Assembly (NCBI GenBank): GCA_041648455.1
Contig: JBAZOZ010000002.1
Location: 1,531-65,530 of the forward strand
Reading direction: 5' to 3'
From: Candidatus Pacearchaeota archaeon
Lineage (GTDB): Archaea > Nanobdellota > Nanobdellia > Pacearchaeales > GW2011-AR1
DNA length: 64,000 nt
Position numbers and translations under genes: made by a program. The notes below the pieces were generated by a model. The model had not been told where the DNA came from, did not search any database, and saw only the letters and a program-made list of their open reading frames with translations. This document shows, in pieces, positions 3,044 through 10,223 of the stretch (position 1 is the stretch's first letter; every line of letters starts with the position of its first letter).

Positions 3044-4666
3044 TTGAGAATTGATTTCATGACAGATAGACCAGTTGTTCTAATGCCGGAAGATATTCAA
3101 AGAATTATGGGAAAGGATGCGCAGAGAAATAATATTCTCGCTGCGAAGATGGTTGCTGAAATTGTAAAAACAACGCTCGGTCCGAAGGGAATGGATAAAA
3201 TGCTTGTTTCTCCGACGGGCGAGATTATTGTTACCAATGATGGCGTTACAATTTTGGAAGAAATGCAGATTGAACATCCCGCTGCAAAAATGATGGTTGA
3301 AATTGCGAGAACACAGGAAAGCGAAGTTGGCGACGGGACTACTACTGCGGTGATGATTGCAGGCAAACTTTTGGAAAACGCGGAAAAACTTTTAGATAAA
3401 AAAATTCATCCAACAATAATCACCAAAGGCTACAGAATTGCTGCTGAAAAATGCCAGGAAATTTTGAAAGATATTTCTTTGAGAATTACTGCGGATGATG
3501 AAGAAGTTTTGAAACAGATTGCGATGACGGCCATGACTGGAAAAGGCGCTGAAGATTCTCGGGAAAAATTTGCAGAAATTGTTGTTAAGGCTGTAAAGCA
3601 AATTGAAAATAACGGGCGGATTGATTTGAGGGATATTAAAATAGAAAAAGCAAAAGGAGACGGAATCAGCGACACAGAATTAATTTCTGGAATTGTTCTT
3701 GACAAAGAAAAAGTTTCATCTGAAATGCCTTCAATTATTCGGGCAGCAAGAATCGCTTTGATTGACTTTCCGTTGGAAATTAAAAATCCAGAGATTGACA
3801 CGAAAATTTCTATTTCTTCCCCCGAGCAATTGCAGAGTTTTTTGAATCAAGAAGAAACCACTATTAAAAACATGATTGAAAAAGTAAGGGAATCCGACGC
3901 GAATGTTGTTTTTTGCCAGAAAGGAATTGATGATTTTGCACAATATCTTTTAGCTAAGGTTGGAATTTATGCCTGCAGAAGAGTCGCTAAATCAGATATG
4001 GAAAAAATTGCAAAAGCGACACGCGGAAAAATTGTCAGTAATTTAAGTGAGTTGAGTTCTTTTGAATTAGGCGACGCTGAAGTTGTTGAAGAAGTAAAAC
4101 ATGGCGAAGATGTTTTAACTTACATTCGAGGATGCAAGAATCCAAAAGCTCTGACAATTTTAATTCACGGCGGGAGCGAACATGTTATCGACGAGATTAA
4201 ACGAGCGTTGATGGATGGATTAGGAGATGTTTCGTCTTCTTTGAAATCTGGGCTTGTTGTTCCTGGGGGAGGTGCGATTGAAATGGAACTTTCCAAAAGA
4301 TTGAGAGAGTTTTCTCAAGGGCTTAGTGGAAGAGAGCAGTTGGCTGTCGAGGAATTTGCTTCTGCTTTGGAATTTATTCCTGCAACTTTAGCTGAAAATG
4401 CCGGCATTGACCCAATTGATGTGCTTACTGAATTAAAATCTCGGCATGATTCTGGAGAAAAAAATGCAGGATTAAATTTATTTACAAATAAAGTTGAAAA
4501 TGTTTTGGAGGCGAGAATTATTGAGCCGTATAAAATTAAGAGCCAGGCAATTAATTCAGCGTCGGAAGTTGCAATTATGATTTTAAGAATTGATGATGTT
4601 ATTGCTTCGACTGGGAAAAAGAAAGGAATGAATTCTGCCGGAGGAATGCCGTCGATGGATTATTAA
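3044..4666 (+). CDS. ths: Thermosome subunit (group II chaperonin, Cpn60/TCP-1 family)
   Basis: 540 aa with [35 protein letters not shown] and VPGGGA motifs. Alternative start MTDRP at 3059. Confidence 0.9.
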
Positions 4667-4862: not shown

Positions 4863-5001
4863 ATTAATAAAATGCGCGAGTGATTTAGAGATAAATTATT
4901 ATTTTAATAAAGTAAATAATCCCCAAACCACCATAAAAACAATTATTGCTATTGCGATCATCTTGATTATTTCTAATATGTTATCAACTGAAGATGATTT
5001 T

Positions 5002-5286
5002 TTAGCCATGTTCTATTTTGTACAACCTCTTTTCTATATTTATTAATCTATCCTGCATTTTAAACTTTTCTTCTATTTTTCTTTCAATCTTTTCCTCAAC
5101 TGATGAATCAATTTCTGAAAATTTAGCTAAAATTATCCATACAATTAAAATTATTAGTATCGCTATGAGAAAGATTAGAGAATAGATTATTAGAAAAAAT
5201 ATTGAATCTGTTGTCTTTTGTATAAGAGAAATAAATATACCGCCAATTAATCCGATTAAGATACCAATTATTTCTGTAATTCTCAT
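5002..5286 (-). CDS. Small membrane protein (two TM helices, coiled C-terminus)
   Basis: Hydrophobic N-terminal half (ILIGLIGGIFISL...LIFLIAILIILIVWIIL). Confidence 0.4.
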   Translation of the reverse strand: MRITEIIGILIGLIGGIFISLIQKTTDSIFFLIIYSLIFLIAILIILIVWIILAKFSEIDSSVEEKIERKIEEKFKMQDRLINIEKRLYKIEHG

Positions 5287-5354
5287 TAATTAATTTAATT
5301 TTTTTATCTCTTAAATATTGTTGTGATTAATAAGGATTTTTATAAGGATTATAT

Positions 5355-5480
5355 CTGCATCTTGGAGTTGTCAAGAACCCTCGGAATAAATCCCAGGGCG
5401 TGTCTCGGGTTCTTGAACACCCCAAAAATTGTTTTTGCTTTCTCACGAATTAAAACAGGGAGTTTTACGCAAAAAACAAT
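5355..5480 (+). repeat. About 125-nt structured element, copy 1 (inverted copy at 40852..40977); candidate ncRNA or MITE-like element
   Basis: gtcaagaaccctcggaataaatcccagggcgtgtctcgggttcttgaacaccccaaaaattgtttttgctttctcacgaattaaaacagggagttttacgcaaaaaacaatttttgctg. It has a 9-bp stem CAAGAACCC/GGGTTCTTG and a roughly 16-bp stem CAAAAATTGTTTTTGC/GCAAAAAACAATTTTTG. The second copy carries compensatory substitutions. Confidence 0.7.
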
Positions 5481-5681
5481 TTTTGCTGTATTAATAAATA
5501 TTAAATTAAGAAACATCATCCATCCAAGATAATAAATTACACCTTTTTTGTTCATGAAAAAATAAAGAAAAGTTAATAAAAATTAGTATAGTGCAATTAA
5601 AAGACATTATTAATTTCCAATCCTATCTTTTGATATATTCGAGAAAACGAAATAGCAGATAGGAATTATTTTGATCTCTTA

Positions 5682-5990
5682 TTATAAATATTCTATTAAT
5701 TTATATATTTCATAACCAGCTCCTACGATACCGATAAGTAATGATAAACAACCTGTTGTTGCTTTACTATTTTTATTAACATTTGAAACGCAACTACAAT
5801 GGTCTTCACAATTACAGGTGTCCGCACATCTACAAACAATACAATCCTTATACTTATCATCGCTATTACACGGTGAAAATGTCTTATCCGAATTTAAATT
5901 TCTCTCTTTATTAAATTCATAAATTCCATTGATTTCTTGCTTTCCTAAAACTTCTCCATTCAAATCTTCTAATCTAAATTTATCTGTCAT
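5682..5990 (-). CDS. Cys-rich RiPP precursor-like peptide C (102 aa from MTDKF). Conserved leader plus a Cys-rich core (10 Cys) plus a C-terminal hydrophobic tail
   Basis: MTDKFRLEDLNGEVLGKQEINGIYEFNKERNLNSDKTFSPC...CIVCRCADTCNCEDHCSCV...TTGCLSLLIGIVGAGYEIYKLIEYL. The track ORF starts at a TTG at 6008; ATG at 5990 is preferred. Confidence 0.7.
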   Translation of the reverse strand: MTDKFRLEDLNGEVLGKQEINGIYEFNKERNLNSDKTFSPCNSDDKYKDCIVCRCADTCNCEDHCSCVSNVNKNSKATTGCLSLLIGIVGAGYEIYKLIEYL

Positions 5991-6004
5991 TTTATTTCTC
6001 GTTA

Positions 6005-6298
6005 TCAATATCTTATTAATTTATATATTTCATAACCAGCTCCTACGATTCCGCCAAGCAATAACAAACAACCAGTCGGTGATTTATGGTTTTGACTTTT
6101 ATTAACTCCATGATCTTCACAAACACAAGTATCTGCGCATCTACAAACAATCGGACAAGGGTTTTCATTTCTAGTACACGGCGAAAATGTCCTATCATCA
6201 TTTAATTCTCGTCGATTTTTAAACTGATAAACCCCATTAATTTCTTGTTCTCCTAAAACTCCTTCTTCTACATCTTCAAGTCTAAATTTGTTTTCCAT
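6005..6298 (-). CDS. Cys-rich RiPP precursor-like peptide B (97 aa). Same leader, a Cys-rich core (7 Cys) and a C-terminal hydrophobic tail
   Basis: MENKFRLEDVEEGVLGEQEINGVYQFKNRRELNDDRTFSPC...CPIVCRCADTCVCEDHG...TGCLLLLGGIVGAGYEIYKLIRY. Confidence 0.7.
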   Translation of the reverse strand: MENKFRLEDVEEGVLGEQEINGVYQFKNRRELNDDRTFSPCTRNENPCPIVCRCADTCVCEDHGVNKSQNHKSPTGCLLLLGGIVGAGYEIYKLIRY

Positions 6299-6315: not shown

Positions 6316-6519
6316 TTAAATCGTTGCGCAGCCACAATGCTCTGAACAATAAGGTGAACAAACGTTAGGACAAGTTTTACCAGCACACTCACACATACCG
6401 GTACAGAATGTCCTATCTGAAACTAAGTTTCTTGTCGTTTTAAAATCATAAATTCCATTAATTTCTTGCTCTTCTTCAAATTCTTCACCAATATTATCTA
6501 ATCTAAATTTGTTTCCCAT
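6316..6519 (-). CDS. Cys-rich RiPP precursor-like peptide A (67 aa). Same leader and a 10-Cys core; no tail
   Basis: MGNKFRLDNIGEEFEEEQEINGIYDFKTTRNLVSDRTFCTGMCECAGKTCPNVCSPYCSEHCGCATI. Its start overlaps the maturase stop by 17 nt. Confidence 0.7.
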   Translation of the reverse strand: MGNKFRLDNIGEEFEEEQEINGIYDFKTTRNLVSDRTFCTGMCECAGKTCPNVCSPYCSEHCGCATI

Positions 6520-7978: not shown

Positions 7979-8821
7979 ATGGTAATAGAATTCACTCTTC
8001 CGGAAATGAATACTGATAATAAATCACTCAAAGATTTAATAATTATTATTTTGGCAGATTGCTGGCCATTGACATTAAAAAAGATTCATAATTCATTAAA
8101 GAAAAATTATTCTGTTAATGTTAGCTATCAAGCAGTTCACAAAACAATAAATGAACTGAAAAATAAAAATATCTTAGATAAAAACAGAAAAGAGTATCGG
8201 CTAAATATTGATTGGATTAAAAGTATTGCAGAGTTTGGAGAGAAAATGAAAGATACATACCAAGAAAAGAAACCTTTAACAGACAAAATTCCATCAAGCT
8301 TTACAGTAAAAAACGCTTGGGAATTATATCCATTATTCATAGATCTCTTTAAGAGAGATATTTTTGACAGCAACGGAAGAAGTATTTGTTTCATTGGCAA
8401 TCAAGTATGGAATCCTATGATGGGTTCCGAGAAAGAAATGGAGAGCTATAAAGAATTATCAAAAAAATATAAATTTCTTCTTGCAGTAAGAAGAAACAAT
8501 CTTCTTAATAAGATGTGGAAAACTTATTGGGACAAATTAGGGGTTAAAGTTAAATTAAATTGTAAAATCTGGCCCAATGAGTTAATAGAATTATTTATCG
8601 TAGGTGATTTCTTTATTCAAAAAATTTATCCAAAAGAACTTATTAACCAGGAGAATAAGGTTGGGGAGAAGATTAAGAAAATTTCAGATGTTAATGTAAA
8701 AGAAGTAAATGACCTCTATTTTGAAAGCTATGGAGATATAAACATTATAATCACAAAAAATGTAGAACTGGCCGCATCTTGGAGAAAGAAGGTAGAAGAT
8801 CTATTTAAGCCAATAAAATAA
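7979..8821 (+). CDS. Hypothetical protein with N-terminal winged-helix-like DNA-binding region, divergent from the rSAM operon
   Basis: 280 aa. The N-terminal 80 aa (LTLKKIHNSLKKNYSVNVSYQAVHKTINELKNKNIL) are wHTH-like. Confidence 0.45.
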   Translation: MVIEFTLPEMNTDNKSLKDLIIIILADCWPLTLKKIHNSLKKNYSVNVSYQAVHKTINELKNKNILDKNRKEYRLNIDWIKSIAEFGEKMKDTYQEKKPLTDKIPSSFTVKNAWELYPLFIDLFKRDIFDSNGRSICFIGNQVWNPMMGSEKEMESYKELSKKYKFLLAVRRNNLLNKMWKTYWDKLGVKVKLNCKIWPNELIELFIVGDFFIQKIYPKELINQENKVGEKIKKISDVNVKEVNDLYFESYGDINIIITKNVELAASWRKKVEDLFKPIK

Positions 8822-8948: not shown

Positions 8949-10223
8949 ATGACATCATGGAAAAATATTAAAAAGAATTTAGATGAGAAAGTAGCTAATT
9001 CAAAAATAGGAAGAACTATCTTTTCAAGAACAGCAAAAGCTATTGCTTTAGGTAGTCTTATTACTACGGCATTGGTTGGAGGAGTTAAATATCATAACTG
9101 GAGAAGTGAGCCAGTTTATAAACATGAAATAAGTGCTGTAGCACCAAGAAACTATAATCCTAACAAAGCAAGCTTAGCAAACAAATTATTACAAGATTTT
9201 CCTACTGAAATTCCTGGGGCTGCTCAAGTTGATAAATATGTTATACCAGAAGCGAAATATTGTTTAGTTCATGTTAGACAAAAACACGTTGTTAAAGGGG
9301 ATTTTAAATATATTTATCATCTAACTGAAAAAGAAATTGAAAATATGAGGAAATTTTTTGAATTAAGTGAAAAAGAAATTAGGGATTTAATCAAAGATGA
9401 TTCTAAAGAAAATGTTTTTGAAAGAACTAAACGATTAAAAAAAACAACAGAAGTTCAAGCAGATATTTATCGAATTTTGGAAAATTTAATTTTAAATAAG
9501 GGATTAAAAGAGGTTTATGATGAGGGATTAACTCCTGAATTTGAAGATTGGAATACTCAAAAATTTAAGACAGATAAATTATGGGATAAAGTCTATAGAA
9601 CTCTTGGAAGTAATGAAAAAAGAGTAAGGGGAGAAATAAGTGAACTTGAGAAAAAAATTAAAGAAGGTAAACAGAGTGTTTCTGTTGCTCTAGAAGCGGA
9701 TTTTGAATATCCTAATGATAAAAATTGTATTGATAAATATCTTTCTAAATTAAGTCAAGAACTTGAAGAACAAAGAAAAAAATTACCTGAAGTTATTGGA
9801 GAAGATAATAAACATGAGCAAGAAAAGAAAAATAGATATCAGTATGATGCAGTGGACAAAGCAGGATTTAATTATGGAATAAAAATTATTCCTGCTGAAA
9901 CTCTTAAGGGGAATATAAGGGCATCACTTGCTATGGATGAAATCAAGAGAGGAAATAAAGATCCGAAATTAGATGAAAAGATATTCGATAACAGAGAAGA
10001 TATTCTTCTTCAATACATCGCCGATCAGAATGAACCTCTTGCAATAAGTGTTTATGGTGGAGCTCATGCATGGGGAGGGAGAGAGTCCTTTGGTACTTCC
10101 TATCCTACAACTGAAAGGACATCTCTAAAAGATAAAGATAATATTGCAGAATGGAATAAAAAACATCCCGACAAAAAATTTTCATTAATAGAAATTACAC
10201 CGACACATTATGAAAAGAAGTGA
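8949..10223 (+). CDS. Membrane-anchored hypothetical protein (single N-terminal TM, about 380-aa soluble domain)
   Basis: TM segment AKAIALGSLITTALVGGV; no recognisable catalytic motif. Confidence 0.45.
   Translation: MTSWKNIKKNLDEKVANSKIGRTIFSRTAKAIALGSLITTALVGGVKYHNWRSEPVYKHEISAVAPRNYNPNKASLANKLLQDFPTEIPGAAQVDKYVIPEAKYCLVHVRQKHVVKGDFKYIYHLTEKEIENMRKFFELSEKEIRDLIKDDSKENVFERTKRLKKTTEVQADIYRILENLILNKGLKEVYDEGLTPEFEDWNTQKFKTDKLWDKVYRTLGSNEKRVRGEISELEKKIKEGKQSVSVALEADFEYPNDKNCIDKYLSKLSQELEEQRKKLPEVIGEDNKHEQEKKNRYQYDAVDKAGFNYGIKIIPAETLKGNIRASLAMDEIKRGNKDPKLDEKIFDNREDILLQYIADQNEPLAISVYGGAHAWGGRESFGTSYPTTERTSLKDKDNIAEWNKKHPDKKFSLIEITPTHYEKK

Follow-up and report, generated by a model that had tools for sequence, protein, structure and literature searches.

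A constrained hydrophobic tail on two Cys-rich precursors of a Pacearchaeota radical SAM peptide locus, and its possible role at the membrane

Why would two of three tandem precursor peptides, encoded next to a likely modifying enzyme, end in a short hydrophobic tail that the third one lacks? The question is raised by a locus of a Candidatus Pacearchaeota archaeon (assembly GCA_041648455.1, contig JBAZOZ010000002.1, positions 1,531 to 65,530), a stretch of 64,000 nucleotides (nt) that is referred to here as the window. On its minus strand, the gene of a radical SAM/SPASM maturase is directly followed by those of precursors A, B and C, in this order, an arrangement of the RiPP type (RiPPs are ribosomally made peptides afterwards modified by enzymes). 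B and C are identical to WC584_00520 and WC584_00515, respectively, two NCBI hypothetical proteins of a Candidatus Pacearchaeota (DPANN) metagenome-assembled genome, and the archaeal nature of the window is also indicated by its thermosome gene (Table 1). The tail of B and C is real and unusual among the related precursors, and the reading favoured here, to which a probability of roughly 0.4 is assigned, is that linker and tail would keep the modified B and C modules at the membrane, with A remaining soluble.

The three precursors share a leader of the form M..KFRL(E/D)(D/N)...Q EING(I/V)Y.F...R.L..D(R/K)TF, which is followed by a Cys-rich core. Precursor A stops right after this core, whereas in B and C a linker of 9-11 residues rich in N, K, S and Q connects the core to a hydrophobic segment with the pattern TGCL(L/S)LL(G/I)GIVGAGYEIYKLI(RY/EYL). 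The two cores show two CX3D spacings, CRCAD and C(V/N)CED, and the two tails are identical in 20 of 23 aligned residues, including a conserved small-xxx-small face (G83...A87 in B and G87...A91 in C). Translation confirms the initial annotation, which had placed a TGCL... tail in B and C, and not in A, within an interval (5682-6298) that corresponds exactly to genes B and C. It was also right in that the extension comes after the Cys-rich core, which it does by way of the polar linker, and in that the charged N-terminus is not a signal peptide; this N-terminus belongs to the conserved leader, and the only hydrophobic segment of both peptides is the C-terminal one.

A codon-wise comparison of B and C gives similar ratios of non-synonymous to synonymous divergence (dN/dS) for the leader (0.36, with nt identity 0.73 and dS 0.75), the core plus linker (0.32, with 0.70 and 0.92) and the tail (0.34, with 0.87 and 0.30). 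Four of the six differing codons of the tail are synonymous (ACT/ACA, TTG/TTA twice and GGA/GGT). Its first nine codons contain four synonymous and two non-synonymous changes, the latter being L/S and G/I, and an R/E difference lies close to the C-terminus. Moreover, the hydrophobic part of the tail uses Gly, Ala, Val and Cys codons, resulting in a GC content of 0.44 in B and 0.38 in C, as compared to 0.20-0.24 in the flanking spacers. The homology between both genes runs past the first stop, the TGA of B being aligned with a TTA (Leu) of C and followed by a shared TAA. No remnant of a tail is found between the stop of A and the start region of B, which directly follows it. A 24-codon open frame would arise by chance in the local intergenic composition with P ~0.12; despite this, the substitution pattern and the codon composition indicate that the tail is translated and constrained, and it is a real coding C-terminal extension under constraint rather than read-through. 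A second public assembly (L174) carries 584 nt, with the B sequence and its flanks, at 100% identity.

The best-conserved part of the tail at the nt level is an identical stretch of 36 nt. It corresponds to codons IVGAGYEIYKLI, covering the last 12 residues and part of the next codon, and shows two matches in the window and none in shuffles. Throughout this run 13/13 codons are the same, as compared to 74% for identical-residue pairs elsewhere (P ~0.02). Both tail regions fold no better than shuffled sequences (z-scores of +0.26 and +0.89) and match no Rfam family, which rules out an RNA-level cause of the identity, and a repeat or mobile element is also ruled out, as the 36-mer occurs in the window in the two tails only. 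Tail-like peptides were found neither elsewhere in the window nor in 173 related loci. Local gene conversion or a very strong constraint is the likely reason for the 36-nt identity.

The distribution of the tail among relatives was followed at the level of both peptides and loci. A word-indexed search with B in a collection of 5.8 billion proteins returned only B and C, and near-identical tails are absent from this collection, since the whole-peptide search found only three word-sharing candidates. When 1.84 billion cluster representatives were searched exhaustively with HMMER, a profile built from A, B and C, tail columns included, brought up 11 proteins that match it in the leader and core alone, and a 19-sequence leader profile likewise gave 11 proteins, with two new ones (P0133 and P0134) that have no tail. 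Eight related loci were then read, whose maturases are 73% (L001), 55% (L165), 54% (L163), 52% (L168), 51% (L172), 50% (L170), 49% (L003) and 41% (L004) identical to that of the window. In four of them (L001, L165, L170 and L172) there are between one and four precursors per locus, with an (N/K)FRL(E/D)D...(D/E)(R/K)TF leader and Cys/Asp-rich cores, and the others (L163, L168, L003 and L004) have a single Cys-rich precursor each with a different leader; a hydrophobic C-terminus is present in none of the precursors of these eight loci. The maturase-plus-precursor module and the leader are also found for peptides P0124-P0138. A score of C-terminal hydrophobicity sets B and C (1.82-1.85) apart from the other 24 family peptides, A included (at most 0.40), and no credible combination of a hydrophilic Cys body with such a tail was seen among 129 Cys-rich small open reading frames (ORFs) on the maturase strand of 167 related loci.

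In scans of GTDB genomes and JGI metagenomes, a handful of the matches listed exceed 40% maturase identity (L003-L005), the others listed being distant relatives, mostly bacterial, and neither the leader family of the window nor the tail appears in any of those listed. For the closest maturase (L002, 82% identity), the contig breaks off at the stop codon of the enzyme gene, so the precursor region falls beyond it. The back-translated tail motif gave no match in the IMG/VR viral contigs. The initial annotation had named absence of the tail from orthologues and read-through into non-coding sequence as the two outcomes that would speak against it, and the answer is divided: none of the related precursors that were found has the tail, and read-through is not the explanation. 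Judging from these comparisons, the tail is a lineage-specific addition in the ancestor of B and C, and not a family feature.

Three observations on other family members touch this question. One of 81 aa (P0127) ends in ...ERGESTGCVGD, and its profile alignment reaches the (S/T)(P/T)TGC position that opens the tails of B and C; from this single, weak case, TGC may perhaps be the ancestral end of the core, the hydrophobic part alone being new. A 147-aa member at L165 contains two Cys-rich regions with an internal helix-like segment, VYEEIFKLILRLDRQQLSRLKVNIDELL, between them, and the resemblance of the tail end YEIYKLIRY to YEEIFKLILRL inside this long precursor was dismissed as being at chance level (E ~17-19). 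Finally, at L097, where the maturase is 31% identical, the Cys-rich precursor encoded upstream of it is of bacterial type and ends in an Ala-rich, moderately hydrophobic helix (SRVLLVAQAIVNAATAALAAE) that is unrelated in sequence to the tails of B and C; it is the only other credible precursor with a C-terminal hydrophobic extension among the 129 candidates.

The enzyme of the locus helps to place its peptides. The maturase matches Radical_SAM in Pfam (E 7e-12) and shows both a CX3CX2C radical SAM cluster and a C-terminal CX2CX5CX3C SPASM motif, whose Cys columns (C91/C95/C98 and C396/C399/C405/C409) are invariant in 33 homologues. A region of ~80 aa precedes the radical SAM core and would possibly bind the leader. 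Its top NCBIfam matches are all peptide maturases (nif11-type, PapB, SCIFF, CefB and CcpM), but it falls far under every curated cut-off, including those of these families: 105 of 425 bits for the SCIFF maturase ScfB (TIGR03974), 113 of 340 for PapB (NF047865), 94 of 600 for CefB (NF038107) and 87 of 500 for CcpM (TIGR04068). The match to the QhpD family (TIGR03906) is also weak (55 versus 453 bits), and the nearest solved structure is that of the SCIFF maturase CteB (5wgg, E 1.7e-18). Of 368 homologues at E<=1e-10, most are unnamed metagenome proteins, and those with a named source come mostly from Pacearchaeota, Woesearchaeota or Nanoarchaeota. As in ranthipeptide and sactipeptide-like loci, a SPASM-type radical SAM enzyme neighbours small precursors whose leader is conserved while the Cys-rich core varies, and the A/B/C locus is of the radical SAM/SPASM RiPP type, outside every named family. 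The start of precursor A overlaps the stop of the maturase by 17 nt, and a first-precursor start inside the last maturase codons, with overlaps of 8-23 nt, is seen in the window and in four related loci; the kept overlap suggests a translational coupling of enzyme and substrate.

Could such a tail hold a peptide at the membrane? Hydrophobicity was computed with a custom script, the Hessa sum being position-independent. The roughly 17-residue hydrophobic stretch of the initial annotation stands as a run free of D, E, K, R, N, Q, H and P (15 residues in B and 17 in C), but the strongly hydrophobic part, CL(L/S)LL(G/I)GIVGA, comprises just 11-13 residues with 3-5 glycines. Over these 11-13 residues the Kyte-Doolittle mean reaches 2.0-2.5, and the Wimley-White octanol sum is -2.3 to -3.5 kcal/mol for the hydrophobic segment and about 0 over 19 residues. 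An amphipathic helix that includes three tyrosines is formed by the last 10-11 residues (GYEIYKLI..), and just 0.7-6% of shuffled sequences attain its hydrophobic moment. Lys residues lie on the N-terminal side of the segment and the net charge on its C-terminal side is zero or negative, which, read from the sequence, would fit an N-in/C-out orientation. As in tail-anchored proteins, there is neither a signal peptide nor any other transmembrane segment, and the apolar stretch of 11-13 residues compares with ~18 or more for a bilayer span. A proteasome-docking HbYX motif at the C-terminus was ruled out, Tyr being the last residue in B and the penultimate in C.

The proposed explanation starts from B and C as tandem-duplicated precursors of a small, DPANN-centred RiPP-like family, which would be defined by an (N/K)F(R/K)LED...D(R/K)TF leader followed by a Cys/Asp-rich core. 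The maturase would bind the shared leader and cross-link the cores through thioethers, an activity that is suggested by its likeness to CteB, PapB and the SCIFF maturases together with the known chemistry of ranthipeptides and QhpD; by this analogy, thioether cross-linking of the core as in ranthipeptides, SCIFF peptides and QhpC is the most likely modification. In one lineage, the ancestor of B and C would have gained a C-terminal module of ~23 residues that offers, in order, a polar flexible linker, a short Gly-rich hydrophobic helix (CLxLLxGIVGAG) and an amphipathic end rich in Tyr and Lys (YEIYKLI). The modified Cys-rich knot would then be held at the cytoplasmic membrane through either a weak N-in/C-out tail anchor or an interfacial, monotopic one, with a possible self-association of the anchors via the small-xxx-small face G..A, and peptide A would stay soluble or be released. 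Both the retention of the tail in the mature product and its membrane association and topology are what we infer. The full picture of a membrane-tethered RiPP, in which a cross-linked knot is kept on the producer's own membrane by a built-in anchor beside a tail-less, soluble paralogue of the same operon, is put forward tentatively and must be considered rather doubtful.

Several points weigh against a tether of this kind. The 19-residue Kyte-Doolittle mean of the tail (1.55-1.56) lies under the classical 1.6 and its 19-residue Hessa sum is about +4.5 to +4.8 kcal/mol, whereas the single-pass anchors of the same 64 kb reach 2.8-3.5 and -4 to -7; the tail is weaker than every one of these anchors and resembles only the weakest helices of multi-pass transporters. 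The tail-anchor reading of the initial annotation is marginal in this respect, the segment being too short and too weak for a proven membrane-spanning anchor, and its features, with a short hydrophobic helix, a subsequent interfacial helix of aromatic and charged residues and a flexible polar connection to the Cys-rich knot, agree less with a canonical transmembrane helix than with a weak tail anchor or a monotopic module for membrane association. The AlphaFold2 model of B from an alignment of B, C and A was of low confidence (mean predicted local distance difference test score of 40), and the locus has no linked gene for an insertion factor, a protease or a transporter. The tail is carried by two paralogues in one genome alone, ~24 relatives being all without it, and both copies count as less independent evidence because the 36-nt identical run suggests local gene conversion. 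With two paralogues in one metagenome-assembled genome, the case of the tail is a lead and not a result.

Other explanations make use of the same features. If the tail remained in a released mature product, it could work as a membrane-active helix on a Cys-knot scaffold, inserting into host or competitor membranes in the manner of a bacteriocin (GxxxG-type). A small-xxx-small motif (G..A / GxxxG) with an amphipathic Tyr/Lys end, a marginal hydrophobicity typical of peptides that partition from water to membrane rather than of constitutive anchors, and the presence of two variants and one tail-less copy, reminiscent of multi-peptide bacteriocin loci, would all agree with such a product. However, neither a transporter nor a leader peptidase nor an immunity-like conserved gene is found at the locus, the knot and the helix are joined by a long polar linker reminiscent of a tether, and none of ~24 family members uses such a helix; this possibility is regarded as unlikely. 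It is also improbable that the tail is a young functionless extension, which would have originated from the loss of a stop codon or from a fusion and then spread to both B and C through duplication and gene conversion. Its absence from all relatives and the not so rare open frame of 24 codons speak for such an origin, and an unusually low divergence with a 36-nt identical run would fit a recent conversion event; however, synonymous changes exceed non-synonymous ones where the tails differ, the Gly/Ala/Val-rich codons are unlike the AT-rich spacers, and B and C are otherwise old duplicates (dS of 0.75-0.9 in leader and core) in which the frame has nevertheless stayed intact and ends alike.

A follower or sorting sequence, cleaved or lipid-exchanged during maturation like PGF-CTERM with archaeosortase or MYXO-CTERM, was the alternative already raised by the initial annotation. 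It is suggested by a loosely tripartite layout of conserved TGC, hydrophobic stretch and charged C-terminus, and a Cys right before the hydrophobic segment recalls MYXO-CTERM. As that annotation had stated for PGF-CTERM and PEF-CTERM, no recognised CTERM motif is present: NCBIfam, with its curated C-terminal sorting domains, gave no family for the whole peptides at E<=1 or for core plus tail at E<=10, and Pfam gave none for the peptides. Moreover, the C-terminal end has no basic cluster (net charge +1 in B and -1 in C), and the multi-transmembrane ORFs of the window, which include an MFS transporter, a membrane protein of the Fer4/cupredoxin kind and a few small ones that have no assignment, comprise no sortase-like, archaeosortase, rhomboid or CPBP protease nor any ABC exporter. 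The sorting reading is also disfavoured because B and C have no signal peptide, which, to our knowledge, all known sortase-type substrates require at their N-terminus, and it is held to be quite improbable. More doubtful still seems a helix for protein-protein contacts or oligomerisation without any membrane role, used in B-C pairing or in docking on the maturase or another partner. A hydrophobic stretch too short for a bilayer, the small-residue face with its amphipathic end, and a 13-residue block IVGAGYEIYKLI that is strictly the same in both paralogues, as a specific interface would require, speak for it, but a soluble interface would rarely show a run of four or five Leu/Cys residues leading into a Gly-rich stretch without heptads, and neither a partner nor an AlphaFold2 fold was found.

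Beyond the precursors, the surroundings of the locus offer further observations. Two small ORFs downstream, of 94 aa (two transmembrane segments and a charged C-terminal helix) and 36 aa (one transmembrane segment), belong to no family at threshold and are not conserved beside related maturases; they might conceivably have a role in immunity or as a partner for the tails. Divergent from the maturase lie a 280-aa ORF, whose N-terminus resembles by eye a winged-helix regulator, and a 424-aa ORF with one N-terminal hydrophobic segment, both without Pfam or NCBIfam assignment and without counterpart in the related loci. A candidate leader peptidase, stand-alone, Peptidase_C39_2-like and also divergent from the maturase, occurs in two related DPANN loci; the two proteins are 40-44% identical to each other, the L168/L169 copy appears split into ORFs of 37 and 158 aa, and no homologue of this peptidase was found in the window. 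In the gap downstream of C (5287-5681), an island with a GC content of 0.44, versus ~0.22 around it, contains two long inverted repeats (CAAGAACCC...GGGTTCTTG and CAAAAATTGTTTTTGC...GCAAAAAACAATTTTTG), and its minus-strand RNA folds at -41.7 kcal/mol (z = -3.55), which none of 200 shuffles equals. It matches no Rfam family, giving just a weak microRNA-like hit, and could represent an unannotated small RNA, an element for termination or processing of the precursor operon transcript, or a site bound by a protein. PADLOC gave no defence-system match beyond generic radical SAM similarity.

Table 1. Coordinates of the features discussed in the text; positions refer to the window unless a related locus is named
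Feature	Position	Strand	Basis or remark
Thermosome gene	3044-4666		archaeal marker
36-aa ORF	4899-5009	-	downstream of precursors
94-aa ORF	5002-5286	-	downstream of precursors
GC-rich island	5340-5500		inverted repeats; minus-strand RNA fold
Precursor C, 102 aa	5682..5990	-	ATG at 5990; ends ...NSKATTGCLSLLIGIVGAGYEIYKLIEYL
C leader, aa 1-38	5877-5990	-	
C Cys/Asp-rich core, aa 39-69		-	
C polar linker, aa 70-78		-	NVNKNSKAT
C tail, aa 79-102	5685..5756	-	TGCLSLLIGIVGAGYEIYKLIEYL; translation, B/C alignment
Identical 36-nt stretch, C tail copy	5694..5729	-	second copy
Precursor B, 97 aa	6005..6298	-	ends ...NHKSPTGCLLLLGGIVGAGYEIYKLIRY
B leader, aa 1-38	6185-6298	-	
B Cys/Asp-rich core, aa 39-63		-	
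B polar linker, aa 64-74		-	GVNKSQNHKSP
B tail, aa 75-97	6008..6076	-	TGCLLLLGGIVGAGYEIYKLIRY; translation, B/C alignment
Identical 36-nt stretch, B tail copy	6014..6049	-	best-conserved tail part at nt level
Precursor A, 67 aa, leader and Cys-rich core, no tail	6316..6519	-	ends ...SEHCGCATI
Maturase/precursor A overlap	6503-6519	-	17 nt
Radical SAM/SPASM peptide maturase, 453 aa	6503..7864	-	Pfam, NCBIfam, invariant Cys columns, CteB likeness
280-aa ORF	7979-8821	+	divergent from maturase
424-aa ORF	8949-10223	+	divergent from maturase
Maturase/precursor overlap, L001	2016-2032		
Maturase/precursor overlap, L165	4214-4236		
Maturase/precursor overlap, L170	4415-4422		
Maturase/precursor overlap, L172	4379-4389		
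147-aa family member, L165	2416-2859	+	two Cys-rich regions
Bacterial-type precursor, L097	35-394	+	upstream of 31% identical maturase
Peptidase_C39_2-like, L166	2780-3403	-	weak or faint Pfam match
Peptidase_C39_2-like, L167	1401-2024	-	weak or faint Pfam match
Peptidase_C39_2-like, L168/L169	2272-2900	-	weak or faint Pfam match

What would a tethered peptide of this kind mean? RiPP precursors are normally described as having a leader and a core, to which a follower may be added, and as giving soluble or secreted products. Full-text literature searches brought up no RiPP precursor described as having a membrane anchor at its C-terminus, and we know of no ranthipeptide or SCIFF precursor with a hydrophobic C-terminal tail. 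If the membrane reading were true, some radical-SAM-modified peptides would act as tethered components of the cell, which bears on what SCIFF-like Cys-rich RiPPs that lack transporters do inside cells. For DPANN archaea, which retain the maturase-precursor module in many lineages despite their small genomes, it would also be one of the rare hints at function; on an episymbiotic cell of this kind, the tethered module could serve at the cell envelope or where the host is contacted, or might provide a metal or redox site bound to the membrane. Genome mining has already led to the prediction of radical SAM RiPP clusters for DPANN archaea (PMC12144867).

Among known systems, PGF-, PEF-, PEP- and MYXO-CTERM as well as LPXTG proteins share with B and C the layout of a motif, a hydrophobic stretch and a few charged C-terminal residues, and differ from them in the model matches, signal peptides, basic end clusters and sorting enzymes described above. 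Tail-anchored proteins, including the eukaryotic CYSTM family, are closer in architecture, being also small proteins without signal peptide that place a hydrophobic extreme C-terminus after a soluble Cys-rich part; compared to a canonical tail-anchor domain, the segment of B and C is shorter and weaker, and there is no Pfam match to CYSTM, whose cysteines lie within the transmembrane segment. With ranthipeptides and SCIFF peptides (CteA-CteB, Tte1186a and freyrasin, PapA-PapB) the locus shares a short leader and Cys-rich core beside a radical SAM/SPASM enzyme and, as in SCIFF loci, no linked transporter or protease, although its maturase scores far under their curated cut-offs and its leader family is a different, DPANN-centred one. 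The two CX3D spacings of the B and C cores recall, as a weak likeness of sequence only, the CX3D motifs of freyrasin, whose chemistry has been described (PMC8326336), and enzymes of the ranthipeptide and QhpD type link Cys to Asp, Glu, Asn or Thr (PMC8326336). QhpC, which is the small subunit of quinohemoprotein amine dehydrogenase, lacks a membrane tail, and no dehydrogenase subunits are encoded near the locus of the window. The radical SAM/SPASM enzyme QhpD installs Cys-to-Asp/Glu thioethers in this small Cys-rich polypeptide, which remains in a protein assembly instead of becoming a free natural product (PMC8326336), and QhpC thus sets a precedent for the retention of a modified peptide by the cell.

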